64,000 bases of DNA from Chitinophaga pinensis (GCA_945888525.1 CAMDAF010000006.1:19489-83488), one strand, 5' to 3'; shown: positions 2,462 to 6,452, counted from the stretch's first letter. Program-made: numbers and translations. Notes: a model not told the origin generated them from the sequence alone.

Positions 2462-2625
2462 ATTATTTCGGGCAGAGATTTGCTTAAGAGTTTGTGTAAT
2501 AAGTAAAATATGGCCAGTAATCCTATGTACTAAACTATTACAAAAGTTCTATAAACTTCAATCACTTTTATATACTATTCATCCGTGTTTTTTCAAACAC
2601 ACATTATTTTCTTTTTAATTGTATG

Positions 2626-2633
2626 TATCTTTG
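2626..2633 (+). promoter_or_regulatory. Bacteroidetes-type -7 promoter element (TATCTTTG) upstream of ssrA
   Basis: It matches the TAnnTTTG consensus about 20 nt upstream of the mature tmRNA 5' end. Confidence 0.35.
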
Positions 2634-2652
2634 CAGTTCGTAAAAACCACAT

Positions 2653-3020
2653 GGGGCTGACCGGAATTGACGGGTAGAGCGAATGGGGTGTAAGCATGTA
2701 GAGCTTTGTTTGCTGGCTCTTTAATCTCAACACTCAAAACTTCAAGAGGCGAAAATAACTTCGCAATGGCTGCTTAATCAGTGATTAGGTAAATTTCCAT
2801 ACACTGTCGTTGCCCTTGTCTGGGTCGGTAACGGGTTACGGTGTTCGACATACCCGGGTATGCAAGCAGTGTTGCAGCGGCTGTTTGCATCACAAGTAGC
2901 ATAAGGTTGTGGCAAGGTCTGAAACCAAGCTTTCACAACTCGAAAAATAATGGTTTCTAAACATGTAGAAAGCGCCATCATTTCCTAGTTCGGACGAGGG
3001 TTCGATTCCCTCCAGCTCCA
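2653..3020 (+). ncRNA. ssrA: tmRNA (transfer-messenger RNA, SsrA)
   Basis: The 5' end GGGGCTGA...GACGGG and the 3' tRNA-like end GGACGAGGGTTCGATTCCCTCCAGCTCCA form an acceptor stem. An internal tag reading frame ggc gaa aat aac ttc gca atg gct gct taa encodes GENNFAMAA-stop. No protein ORF is plausible here. Confidence 0.85.
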
Positions 3021-3039
3021 CAAAAACATTCATTTCAAT

Positions 3040-3070
3040 GCTGACACGCAAGTGTCGGCATTTTTTGTTT
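3040..3070 (+). terminator. Rho-independent terminator of ssrA
   Basis: GCTGACAC-GCAA-GTGTCGGC is an 8-bp stem with a GNRA loop, followed by ATTTTTTGTTTT. Confidence 0.7.
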
Positions 3071-3113
3071 TAAAACAGCGTTGAAAGTCCTCTTTCATAA
3101 GCAGGATTAAAAC

Positions 3114-3450
3114 AAAAAAAGCTTTGAAAAAGCGCATTGAAATGAATGTTCTTGTAAGGCCCACCACCTCGGGAACAACAAAGTTATTCCCCTAATATCC
3201 TCATTCACTCTCTAGATGGGATTAAAAAAAGCTTTGAAAAAGCGCATTGAAATGAATGTTCTTGTTAGGCTCCCCAATTAGGGAACAACAAAGTTATTCC
3301 CCTTTGAACTTCACATTCACTCTCTACATGAAACAAAAAAAAACTTTTGAATAATAGCGCATTGAAATGAATGTTCTTGTTAGGCCCCCACCTCGGGAAC
3401 AACAAAGTTAATCCCCTTTGAATTTTAACCACAATCTCTACAAATGTTAC
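3114..3450. repeat. Tandem array of three ~110-115 bp repeats (about 85% identical) downstream of ssrA
   Basis: The unit is AAAAAAAGCTTTGAAAAAGCGCATTGAAATGAATGTTCTTGTTAGGCCCCCACCTCGGGAACAACAAAGTTATTCCCCT..., starting at about 3114, 3224 and 3339. Each unit carries the hairpin GGGAACAAC-AAA-GTTATTCCC. An inverted match (ACATTCATTTCAATGC) sits at 3028-3045, directly after the tmRNA 3' end. Confidence 0.7.
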
Positions 3451-3668
3451 ACCCCTATGGGGTTAAATCCTGAAACGCTTACTGCAACGAAGTGAAGCGT
3501 TCTCACGAGCTCGCTAGTAACTTAGCGTCAGCGTTCTCACGACCAGAGGGAGTACACCAACAAAATGTATCCATTTTAGCATTCGTTTTAATCAAGCATC
3601 ATCGAAAAACTACCCCCTAAACGCTAGACCCTATCCCCTAATTCATCCGTTTCCATTACCTTTGCTCC

Positions 3669-4868
3669 ATGTCCATCTCAATCGGTATCATTCGTGAAGA
3701 AAAACAACCCGCTGATAAACGCGCCGCCTTTACGCCAGCGCAGTGTGTTGATTTGAAGGCGCGATACCCTCAATTGCAAATCTTTATCCAATCGTCGAGC
3801 GACCGTTGCTTTTCTGATGAACTATACACCAAAGTGGGTGTTGAAATAAAAGAAGACCTGAGCAATTGCGATTTTTTATTTGGCATAAAAGAAGTTCCTG
3901 CCGATAAATTGATTGCCAATAAGACCTATTTGTTCTTTTCACATACAATCAAAAAACAAGCCCACAACAAAGACTTGATGCACGCCCTAATTGAAAAGAA
4001 AATCAAACTCATTGATTACGAAACCTTGCGTTGGAAAAACGGCGACCGTATACTTGGTTTTGGCCGCTTTGCTGGTGTAGTTGGCGCTTACAATGGCCTT
4101 ATCACTTGGGGTAAAAAACACAAGACTTTCGACCTTAAACCGGCCTACCAATGCAGCGATTATGCAGAGCTAAAACGCGAGCTTAAAAAAGCTGTTTTAC
4201 CAAATATAAAAATCATTCTTACTGGCAATGGCCGTGTGTCGTTGGGTGCACTAGAATTGTTAAACGAAGCTGGTATCAAACAGGTAACCCCAGCGGATAT
4301 TTTAACCAAGATATTTGCAGAACCCGTATTTGCGGTTTTGTTAAGTGAAAACTTATACGAGCGCATCGATGGTAAAGCCTATGACAGAAGCGATTTTCAC
4401 CACGATCCAACCCGTTACCGTTGTGTGTTCAGATACTATTTACCGCAATGCGATTTGTTGATTAATGGCATTTACTGGGACGAGCACATGGACCGCTTGT
4501 TTTCTGAAAACGACACCCGTTTAAGCACCTTTAAAACCAAAGTGATTGCCGACATCAGTTGTGATGTAAATGGCGGTGTTCCTATCACTTTAAAAGACAC
4601 CAAAATATTTGATCCTGTATTTGGGTACGACCCCATGTCAATGAGCATGTGCGAGCCGTATTTAGACCATACCATCGATATTATGGCGGTGGGCAATCTA
4701 CCAACTGAATTACCCCGCGATGCCAGCGAAGGCTTTGGCGCTATGCTCATCGAATATGTACTACCAGAACTCCTCAAAATCGAAAGCACCGTGATCGAAA
4801 ATGCCTGCATTTGCAAAGACGGAAAGCTGACGCATGAGTATGCGTATTTGACGGACTATGCGTATTAG
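3669..4868 (+). CDS. Saccharopine dehydrogenase (L-lysine-forming, LYS1-like), AlaDH/PNT fold
   Basis: The N-terminus IIREEKQPADKRAAFTP, and the stretches FGIKEVPAD and FGRFAGVVGAYNGL, parallel yeast Lys1 (HLRAETKPLEARAALTP, IIGLKEMPE, FGFYAGFAGAALGV). Confidence 0.55.
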   Translation: MSISIGIIREEKQPADKRAAFTPAQCVDLKARYPQLQIFIQSSSDRCFSDELYTKVGVEIKEDLSNCDFLFGIKEVPADKLIANKTYLFFSHTIKKQAHNKDLMHALIEKKIKLIDYETLRWKNGDRILGFGRFAGVVGAYNGLITWGKKHKTFDLKPAYQCSDYAELKRELKKAVLPNIKIILTGNGRVSLGALELLNEAGIKQVTPADILTKIFAEPVFAVLLSENLYERIDGKAYDRSDFHHDPTRYRCVFRYYLPQCDLLINGIYWDEHMDRLFSENDTRLSTFKTKVIADISCDVNGGVPITLKDTKIFDPVFGYDPMSMSMCEPYLDHTIDIMAVGNLPTELPRDASEGFGAMLIEYVLPELLKIESTVIENACICKDGKLTHEYAYLTDYAY

Positions 4869-4990
4869 GGTCTAGGGGTTAGGGTCTAGGGTTTAGTAAT
4901 TAAACATGATGCATCTTTATTTCGTTATCTAATTTTATCGCGTTTTATACGAGGGTTTAGGGTCTAGGGGCATAGGGTTTAGTATGTAAT
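4866..4990 (+). repeat. Two tandem copies of a G-rich repeat element with canonical G-quadruplex spacing (GGG-TCTA-GGGG-TTA-GGG-TCTA-GGG)
   Basis: The copy at 4868-4891 begins at the stop codon of the upstream gene. The second copy, 4953-4977, is GGG-TTTA-GGG-TCTA-GGGG-CATA-GGG. Both are followed by similar ~50-bp AT-rich tails, making a tandem duplication of about 85 bp. Confidence 0.6.
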
Positions 4991-5126: not shown

Positions 5127-5187
5127 AACTAAACCCTAACCCCTACTTGCCCATCGGAGTGAAACGCAGGTGGGTACCCTAGACCCT
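5127..5187 (-). repeat. Copy of the ~62-bp G-rich element (AGGGTCTAGGGTACC...GGCAAGTAGGGGTTAGGGTTTAG), minus orientation
   Basis: Its reverse complement aligns with the element at 6391-6452. It lies immediately 3' of the minus-strand gene 5236-5877, in sense orientation. Confidence 0.6.
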
Positions 5188-6390: not shown

Positions 6391-6452
6391 AGGGGCTAGG
6401 GTACCTACCTTCGTTTCACTCATGCAGGCAAGTAGGGGTTAGGGTTTAGTTT
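6391..6452 (+). repeat. Copy of the ~62-bp G-rich element, plus orientation, immediately 3' of gene 5931-6386
   Basis: AGGGGCTAGGGTACCTACCTTCGTTTCACTC...GGCAAGTAGGGGTTAGGGTTTAG is about 85% identical to the inverted copy at 5127-5187. Confidence 0.6.

Follow-up and report, generated by a model that had tools for sequence, protein, structure and literature searches.

What is the tandem repeat that lies directly behind the transfer-messenger RNA (tmRNA) gene, ssrA, in a 64,000-nucleotide (nt) stretch of the Chitinophaga pinensis genome (GCA_945888525.1, CAMDAF010000006.1:19489-83488; the whole stretch is referred to as the window)? The 3' ends of tRNA and tmRNA genes are classic entry points for islands and prophages, and short non-coding DNA at such sites tends to be dismissed as scars. 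A reading of the sequence alone had noted three hairpin-bearing units at this position and offered three explanations, namely a small-RNA array, a decayed series of attachment (att) scars or an array of protein-binding sites. The present analysis identifies the three units securely as tandem copies of the distal half of a conserved palindromic module, free of open reading frames (ORFs), that is located at the ends of stable-RNA genes. Three points go beyond the sequence-only reading: by way of the inverted core, unit 1 belongs with the ssrA terminator to one large palindrome; relatives carry the units along with ssrA; and the phenomenon is a general one.

The palindrome and its tandem units

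A three-unit tandem repeat with hairpins behind the tmRNA gene and its terminator is confirmed by Rfam, a terminator scan, Tandem Repeats Finder and motif counts. Tandem Repeats Finder places the array at 3110-3422 with a period of 110, 2.8 copies, 84% matches and a score of 444, and the in-register units occupy 3088-3197, 3198-3309 and 3310-3424 (110-115 nt) with a mean column identity of 88%. The core GCGCATTGAAATGAATGTTC is found exactly at 3132, 3242 and 3357 and in inverted form, with 3 mismatches, at 3024-3043 (4 matches versus 0 expected), while the unit hairpin GGGAACAACAAAGTTATTCCC is exact at 3171 and 3281 and has 1 mismatch at 3395 (0 expected). The inverted core had been seen previously, although its placement at 3028-3045 was slightly off; taken as a 22-mer it lies at 3020-3041 and overlaps the last 4 nt of the tmRNA. 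The core had also been called near-palindromic, but it is the inverted complement of the ssrA trailer and itself no palindrome.

Unit 1, the ssrA trailer and the terminator together form a single long imperfect palindrome (3020-3155). In the inverted-repeat analysis, 3020-3041 is complementary to the core of each unit at 21 of 22 positions (95%), and the duplex of this arm with each unit has a calculated energy of -24.1 kcal/mol, compared with a mean of -8.7 kcal/mol for its pairing with the right arms of other modules. The predicted fold of 3019-3200 is a four-way junction, composed of a closing stem between the trailer and the unit-1 core, the terminator tip, a b/b' arm that ends in the centre hairpin, and the small hairpin h2. 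The minimum free energy of the plus strand of this segment is -62.6 kcal/mol, as against -29.7 +/- 3.4 kcal/mol for shuffled sequences (z = -9.6), and that of the minus strand is -72.0 kcal/mol (z = -8.1); DNA parameters give z = -9.7. Single units folded alone, on either strand, are no better than shuffles (z -0.2 to -2.1), and in the computed folds it is thus the whole palindrome alone that is exceptional, the single units giving no signal. A small hairpin in the C-rich linker of the units shows no consistent covariation across the strain variants.

Unit 2 aligns to unit 1 (81%) from the centre loop onwards, and the repeat unit is therefore the distal half of the palindrome, termed R. Read in this register, the units do not constitute a stand-alone array; unit 1 completes the palindrome, whose distal half is repeated by units 2 and 3. 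The features of the locus are as follows.

2653-3023, plus strand: tmRNA gene (ssrA), Rfam RF00023, 119.8 bits, full length
3020-3041, plus strand: arm a, the last 4 nt of the tmRNA plus trailer, ACAAAAACATTCATTTCAATGC, inverted complement of the 22-nt core in all units
3037-3062 plus T-run, to 3068, plus strand: ssrA intrinsic terminator T1 (arm h1), AATGCTGACAC-GCAA-GTGTCGGCATT
3058-3073, plus strand: arm b, GCATTTTTTGTTTTAA, pairing with b' at 3107-3122 (94% complementary), also in the folds
3078-3102, plus strand: centre hairpin, GCGTTGAAAG-TCCT-CTTTCATAAGC, the palindrome tip, starting 55 nt past the ssrA end
3088-3197, plus strand: unit 1, the distal half R, from inverted-repeat, register and fold analyses; it contains a half-centre, the b' A-run (3107-3122), the small hairpin h2 (GCTTT-GAA-AAAGC, 3121-3133), the a' core (3134-3155), a C-rich linker (3156-3170) and the hairpin GGGAACAAC-AAA-GTTATTCCC (3171-3191)
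3198-3309, plus strand: unit 2, an R copy with degenerate half-centre; core 3244-3265, hairpin 3281-3301; 81% identical to unit 1 in register
3310-3424, plus strand: unit 3, an R copy; core 3359-3380, hairpin 3395-3415 with one mismatch
3410-3436, plus strand: possible degenerate repeat of the tmRNA 3' end behind the last unit, with AATCCCC...CCACAA as against GATTCCC...CCACAA (by eye, weak)

The centre hairpin occurs once in the window (0 expected) with 0 mismatches to the family motif described below. The terminator scan of 2500-3800 on both strands returned T1 of ssrA as the sole intrinsic-terminator-like site and none in the units, and the covariance models of Rfam 15, run over 2950-3700 (E <= 10), gave no relevant family. 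It had been stated that the repeats do not duplicate the tmRNA 3' end; in fact ATTCCC, the 3' strand of the tmRNA T-stem, is the 3' strand of every unit hairpin. The window has no stretch that matches 10 or more of the gene's 12 terminal nt; just ATTCCC and the doubtful CCACAA are found there.

The ssrA gene itself ends in ...CTCCAC, with CCA not encoded, and a putative -7 box of Bacteroidota type, TATCTTTG, can be read at 2628-2635 ahead of it. ARAGORN called no tmRNA or tRNA in the window, and Rfam was needed for ssrA. Annotation based on ARAGORN may miss tmRNA genes of this clade, as it did here despite a score of 119.8 bits in Rfam.

A module family behind tRNA and tmRNA genes

A family sample selected by the centre motif GCGTTGAAAG-N4-CTTTCAWAAGC comprises 121 sites on at least 120 metagenome contigs; many of the loci are related, and the counts given here are not independent. 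Among the matches listed, 86 of the 121 sites lie 37-126 nt (nearly all 37-60 nt) after a co-oriented tRNA gene, the tRNA being of type Pro in 35 cases, Ser in 16, His and Arg in 8 each, Leu in 7, Gln in 4, Asp in 3, Ala and Lys in 2 each and Met in 1; the remaining sites are second modules in arrays, contig ends and a few other contexts. Eighteen other tRNA genes on the family contigs are without the centre motif, and the module therefore accompanies some genes only. Judged by their neighbouring genes, the tRNA-linked contigs appear to derive from Bacteroidota; the relatives of the window are named as Bacteroidia or Bacteroidota.

The family modules share one layout, in which the gene end is followed by a trailer (a), a canonical terminator, a T-run (b), the centre hairpin and an A-run (b'), and then by a small hairpin, often AATGAGCGAAGCGAATG, the trailer complement (a'), a C-rich linker and a distal hairpin. 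The complement of the trailer is specific to each locus and lies ~100 nt downstream of it. The distal hairpin, for example CAGGATCACC-GAA-GGTAATCCTG, has as its 3' strand the 3' strand of the gene's T-stem, and it carries a C-A mismatch and a 3-nt loop both in the window (the AAA-loop hairpin of unit 1; tmRNA GATTCCC) and after tRNA genes (GGATCACC-GAA-GGTAATCC). Furthermore, in 27 of the 86 modules there follows a match to at least 10 of the 12 terminal nt of the tRNA, in most cases 156-200 nt downstream, with a second terminator behind it; with 27 members out of 86 showing it, such a gene-end copy is a frequent and not a defining feature.

In a MAFFT alignment of 27 tRNA-Pro modules the variable arms are misaligned, so that RNAalifold finds just the centre and a portion of b/b'; arm pairing was therefore judged by folds of each locus, which are predictions, together with a cross-pairing control. 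In these folds, typically three-armed junctions among those listed, the long-range closing helix starts at most 14 nt from the gene end in 65 of 74 dereplicated modules. A trailer paired with its own right arm gives a mean of -20.4 kcal/mol, as compared with -13.4 kcal/mol for the right arm of another locus with the same tRNA type and -10.8 kcal/mol for those of other types. The compensation is also evident between genes: the ssrA module is ~80% column-identical to the module after tRNA-Ala(GGC) in loci L052 and L164, with 7 trailer positions changed on both sides and a distal hairpin that fits each gene's own T-stem, so that one module subfamily is present at two genes with a common ...CTCCAC end. 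Tandem R units or whole modules recur in L115, L155, L062 and L072, and L115 has six ~88-nt units that end in an exact copy of the tRNA-Asp 3' end. The ssrA module of the window belongs to the class, which is defined here with its 37-60 nt centre range from the 121 metagenome sites, by its centre distance, trailer complementarity, junction fold and T-stem distal hairpin.

The centre hairpin is also found elsewhere. Four loci (L075, L136, L144, L145) have rRNA operons in the unusual order 16S-5S-23S and carry the 25-nt centre hairpin on long complementary arms in the 5S-23S spacer, in opposite orientation, and in L071, L078 and L149 it sits on a similar junction near a T-box leader, without a tRNA gene; it is therefore not confined to tRNA flanks.

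Among close strains, represented by ten metagenome contigs that encode an identical neighbouring 399-amino-acid protein, the number of units is polymorphic, with 2 in L002, 3 in the window, L001 and L004, and at least 4 in L003 and L005 (both with scaffold gaps). The 22-nt core is exact in all units of these near-identical strains, and the hairpin loop alternates between AAA and GCA. A wider comparison covered 37 genome loci with a homologous AlaDH-like gene (protein identity 74-97%), in which ssrA often adjoins that gene in either orientation; it follows that the ssrA block, together with any units it has, was inverted or re-inserted as the clade evolved. A search for the units in relatives, as had been suggested, located them 3' of ssrA in L011, L012, L013 and L030 (ssrA on the plus strand) and in L031, L033 and L034 (minus strand), always in constant relative orientation and in tandem copies in L011, L012 and L034. 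An nhmmer profile of the unit has no matches elsewhere in the window or in loci L001-L047. Being found only 3' of ssrA and in one relative orientation, the units therefore travel with ssrA. Presence of the module among the relatives' ssrA loci is patchy, and no units accompany ssrA in L014, L016, L021, L023, L026, L027, L029, L035 and L038-40, which have a plain terminator.

The trailer varies between genomes, and unit 1 is complementary to it each time (21/22 positions in the window, 21/22 in L012, 18/18 in L034). L012 and the window differ by 4 trailer positions changed on both sides, and in L012 unit 1 matches its own trailer whereas units 2 and 3 retain the window-type core. The comparison of ssrA-downstream regions that had been proposed yields one filled-versus-empty pair. 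In L013, ~470 nt (2 CCCTG elements and 2 units) separate the ssrA end from a second AGCTCCAC, past which the sequence is the trailer found directly after ssrA in L021; L013 is thus the filled and L021 the empty site. A direct repeat of the 3' part of the gene bounding an insert is clear in L013 (AGCTCCAC), in L040 (TCCCTCCAGCTCCAC) and at the 27 tRNA loci, and partial in the window.

Several further observations concern these flanks. In L040 a displaced second TCCCTCCAGCTCCAC lies ~90 nt past the ssrA end and marks an insert of about that length, flanked by 15 nt repeated from the tmRNA 3' end. A second palindromic element of ~130 nt (CCCTGTAGC...GCTACAGGG), with its own terminator, is inserted exactly at the ssrA 3' end AGCTCCAC and is present in L011, L013 (2 copies), L016 (3 copies), L027 and L033; in L011 it substitutes for the left half of the module, exactly up to the palindrome centre. 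Small candidate GIY-YIG-like ORFs, recognised by eye, often follow this element (L014, L016, L027, L033), and a Pfam-confirmed GIY-YIG ORF follows the tRNA-Ser module in L116. Further along the window, telomere-like heptamer runs, (T/C)TAGGG(T/G), occur at 3616-3641 (minus), 4865-4896 (plus), 4952-4982 (plus), 5129-5146 (minus) and 6432-6449 (plus); they are intergenic and inverted on either side of the AlaDH-like ORF. The motif TAGGGKNTAGGG has 7 matches versus 0.01 expected, every one of them at 3.6-6.5 kb; the remaining 57 kb contain no match. Several metagenome contigs end at heptamer runs, and L004 and L005 differ in sequence there. A 13-nt direct repeat, AGCGTTCTCACGA, is present at 3496-3508 and 3530-3542, and in L006 another upstream locus, with a DUF4139 gene, is joined to the AlaDH-like gene at window position 3519; this junction at the 13-nt repeat represents either a rearrangement or a chimeric assembly.

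Origin and nature of the module

The reading favoured here, held tentatively and with somewhat less than even confidence, is that the module is an att-like gene-end insertion cassette that supplies a terminator, and that its R half expands and contracts by unequal recombination. What is observed is the anatomy of the module, the compensation between its arms, the polymorphic copy number, the patchy presence, the 3'-end copies and the conservation from locus to locus; the mechanism of insertion, the acting enzyme and any gain beyond termination are inferred. The proximal half, L (3020-3087), comprises the ssrA trailer and the intrinsic terminator, the module beginning at the last bases of ssrA; past the 25-nt tip, R retraces the palindrome through the A-run, the small hairpin, the 22-nt trailer complement, the C-rich linker and the T-stem hairpin. 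Recombination duplicating the gene 3' end, from the T-loop side to the 3' terminus, would insert the cassette much as an att-flanked miniature integrative element is inserted, and the cassette would carry in the terminator now used by the gene. The R half could later be amplified or lost through unequal recombination. In support of this reading stand the gene-end copies with displaced terminators behind them, the filled and empty sites of L013 and L021, the patchy occurrence in relatives, the single module subfamily at ssrA and tRNA-Ala(GGC), the mixed arrays and the small islands described below. Among the three explanations offered earlier, the series of att scars comes closest, in view of the gene-end copies at 27 of 86 loci and the insert in L013; the fold is conserved, however, its changes are compensatory and it recurs after tRNA genes, and the modules are therefore not simply decayed scars.

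In L143 (+170 to +2043, tRNA-Pro), L082 (+190 to +3052) and L100, additional copies of the tRNA 3' end beyond the module enclose small islands that have no integrase. Their contents include hipBA (HipA_C confirmed by Pfam) and, by eye, a putative DUF3800-like gene and XRE, SocA-like and RelE-like genes.

Several results weigh against an insertion cassette. As had been noted previously, there is no integrase at the locus: a Pfam search of 8 window ORFs detected no integrase or recombinase near the array, and the genes at 3.7-9 kb are housekeeping genes. In addition, 140 ORFs downstream of family members gave 133 Pfam families, with no recombinase among the 25 families listed, and no copies of the module were found in IMG/VR or in phage and plasmid collections. 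The arms vary by locus yet stay complementary, with 4-7 positions changed on both sides, and such compensated arms look like fold selection or homogenisation of a palindrome rather than decaying scars. The window units retain just ATTCCC of the tmRNA end, the R-R junctions are without the L half expected from simple serial integration, and a 170-190-bp double-stranded circle is implausible as an intermediate.

An extension of the cassette reading, which we regard as rather unlikely, is that the module constitutes a new class of ORF-less integrative mini-element of stable-RNA genes, active as folded single-strand DNA or RNA and inserted by a host or trans-acting recombinase. Closed on a single copy of the gene 3' end, it would form a 170-190-nt branched rod, capped at one end by a G(CUUG)C hairpin and at the other by a GNA-loop hairpin, with a stem-bubble-stem around the copied acceptor strand, and it might be inserted much like attC or CTX-phi attP(+) hairpins. 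The module appears to be widespread, probably in the Bacteroidota; as such an element it would supply terminators and may serve as a secondary landing site for small defence or toxin-antitoxin islands.

The close rival of the cassette reading, possible though less probable, is a structured RNA. Read-through past T1 would make the module a 3' extension of pre-tmRNA or pre-tRNA, freed by tRNA-type 3' processing and folding as a junction, and its role would be that of a stable non-coding RNA or of an element for processing or stability; extra units would offer alternative partners for the trailer, and an insertional origin would be compatible with all of this. The loops are suggestive of RNA, in that 48 of 74 modules have CTTG as the centre loop on the gene's strand and none has CAAG, the h1 loops are of GNRA or UUCG type, and C-GNA-G is frequent in h2. 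The sense fold is better than the antisense fold in 95 of 97 modules (mean 6.8 kcal/mol), and long-range helices contain 117 G-U pairs in sense versus 70 in antisense (binomial p = 7e-4, loci not independent). The locus-specific, compensated arms and the closing helix close to the gene end point in the same direction, and E. coli rrn operons provide a precedent of dual terminators with a read-through small RNA (sRNA) between them (PMC8144298). However, a canonical hairpin and U-run terminator lies upstream of everything but arm a, and the sense advantage comes mostly from the left arm, which contains this terminator, the strands of the right arm by itself differing by only -0.47 kcal/mol. Within the window it is the antisense fold that is more stable (-72 versus -62.6 kcal/mol), the conserved C-A mismatch of the distal hairpin in sense becomes a G-U pair in antisense, and many relatives have a plain ssrA terminator and no module. 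On these data, the form that matters may be RNA, single-stranded DNA or a duplex palindrome.

The bias of the window fold towards the minus strand bears on the small-RNA array offered earlier, for which the present results do little. Such an array would consist of minus-strand small RNA genes convergent with ssrA, using TAACTTTG in the hairpin as a -7 element and ending at GCTTTTTCAAAGC plus T7, with products of ~55-60 nt bearing the same 22 nt as the ssrA trailer. On that strand each unit reads as hairpin, conserved GGGCCTWACAAG, core, small hairpin and T-run, TAACTTTG fits the Bacteroidota -7 promoter consensus TAnnTTTG in 3 of 3 units, the hairpin is fully paired on the minus strand only, by way of a G-U pair, and the fold of 3019-3200 is the more stable one. 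The candidate box is nevertheless lost in the GCA-loop strain variants, where it is TAACTGCG, and is TACCTTCG in the tRNA-linked family; there is no convincing -33 element. The promoter scan covered sigma-70-type promoters only. The terminator scan is empty on the minus strand, where the stem has 5 bp with 2 G-C pairs and the units hold no scan-grade terminator; single units fold like shuffles (z -0.2 to -1.9), and Rfam has no match. We consider this array improbable. A similarly low probability is assigned to a neutral by-product, in which the terminator region would be inverted and duplicated, template switching would homogenise the arms and slippage would make the tandems, with no function beyond the terminator. 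Copy-number differences among near-identical strains, the fact that the sole trailer-matching unit in L012 is unit 1, nearest the trailer, and the replacement of the left half in L011 by another element exactly at the palindrome centre would all suit such an origin. On the other hand, the 25-nt centre with its conserved asymmetric internal loop and the h2 motif AATGAGCGAAGCGAATG are common to at least 10 tRNA types and many genomes, and this indicates common descent plus constraint rather than repeated accidents. The least probable reading is the proposed array of protein-binding sites on double-stranded DNA, here taken as imperfect inverted half-sites GGGAACAAC and GGGAATAAC. An inverted repeat that is imperfect at a conserved position and has a variable central triplet (AAA or GCA) would be compatible with it; however, the outer half-site follows each gene's T-stem (GGAT, GGGAT, TTGGAT, GGGAA) while remaining complementary, and this is the behaviour of a hairpin and not of a sequence-specific duplex site. 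Nothing in the results supports the array.

No known element accounts for the module in the searches made. Twenty family loci gave no relevant family in Rfam (E <= 0.1), and a literature search that included the literal motif found no description of it; a motif reported after tRNA genes in Methanopyrus is different (PMC5217627). The families downstream are typical of chromosomal Bacteroidota genes, including Fib_succ_major and CarboxypepD_reg-like domains, and no family recurs among those listed for these ORFs. Of the downstream genes, 33 are convergent and 29 co-directional, and a dedicated role against convergent transcription is therefore not indicated. Clustered regularly interspaced short palindromic repeats (CRISPR) were rejected because there are no spacers, type III toxin-antitoxin RNA repeats because there is no toxin ORF, a group II intron or retron because the module is too small and has no reverse transcriptase, and a CsrA sponge because the GGA is inside a stem and the phylum is probably without CsrA. 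An rrn boxA matches at 7 of 13 positions only, dif or Xer sites have no match, and a short ORF in the centre hairpin was considered and dropped on sequence grounds. Integron attC sites, including clusters of attC lacking integron integrases (CALIN), are set aside, as there are no R'' RYYYAAC or R' GTTRRRY boxes at the palindrome foot, a 6/7 resemblance lies inside the centre hairpin only, and the units are without ORFs. A dispersed repeat of miniature inverted-repeat transposable element or repetitive extragenic palindromic type (MITE/REP) is likewise rejected, since the 64-kb window holds no other copy of the unit or the centre, L001-L047 hold no further copies, and the arms differ by locus.

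The significance of these observations is that a local repeat becomes one instance of a conserved structured module found after at least 10 kinds of tRNA gene and ssrA, in which a gene-specific fold is kept by compensatory change and copy number is variable among near-identical strains. Were the module mobile, it would count as an unusually small passenger, devoid of a recombinase, by which the terminators of essential RNA genes are rewritten; were it RNA, it would be an undescribed family built from tRNA and tmRNA trailers; and were it neither, it would offer a clean natural system for the study of palindrome maintenance. Each of these answers would be new.

Comparison with known systems

Compared with sibling sRNA tandem arrays such as LhrC1-5 and PrrF1/2, the locus has similar ~110-nt tandem units, each with a hairpin and a T-run on one strand, but its promoter and terminator are weak or not conserved, and unit 1 is fused into the palindrome of the ssrA terminator. 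The ends of E. coli rrn operons carry dual terminators with the sRNAs rrA, rrB and rrF between them (PMC8144298). These share with the module a structured sequence between the first and the next terminator of a stable-RNA operon, with read-through possible; they differ in having no sequence relationship to it, the module being a repeated palindrome that includes the first terminator and is known here from sequence alone. The tyrT locus of E. coli has a further resemblance. Egan and Landy are said to have described there, in 1978, a 178-bp unit that follows the tRNA-Tyr gene in 3.14 copies, with 19 bp of the tRNA 3' end in every unit. Both loci thus have a tandem repeat directly 3' of a tRNA-type gene with part of the gene end in each unit. 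However, the units at tyrT are direct copies with the gene end included, whereas the module units consist of an inverted trailer complement and a hairpin, in a design common to many genes and genomes.

A resemblance also exists to recombination substrates that act as folded single strands, namely integron attC sites and the attP(+) hairpin of CTX-phi, which Val et al. reportedly showed in 2005 to be used by XerCD. The module differs in being without R''/R' boxes, dif-like sites and cassette ORFs, and its use by an integron integrase or Xer would be conjectural. The likeness consists in a fold that is kept while the sequence varies, a conserved hairpin mismatch, a stem-bubble-stem around the copied gene end, and tandem arrays with no recombinase in cis.

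Williams is said to have surveyed, in 2002 in NAR, the use of att sites at tRNA and tmRNA genes, including their T-loop sublocation. Repeats of such sites are known from tandem accretion of integrative elements, from cis-mobilizable elements and from the tycheposons of Prochlorococcus. The module differs from them in being 110-200 nt long without an ORF, in the absence of an integrase in cis or among the Pfam families listed for neighbouring ORFs, in an interior that is a conserved palindrome with compensatory arms, and in interior units that keep ~6 nt of the gene. It agrees with them in its location at the 3' end of stable-RNA genes, in the family's direct gene-end copy, which spans T-loop side to 3' terminus and precedes a displaced terminator, in inserted DNA that gives the gene a new trailer and terminator, and in the occurrence of arrays, mixed arrays and a filled-versus-empty pair.

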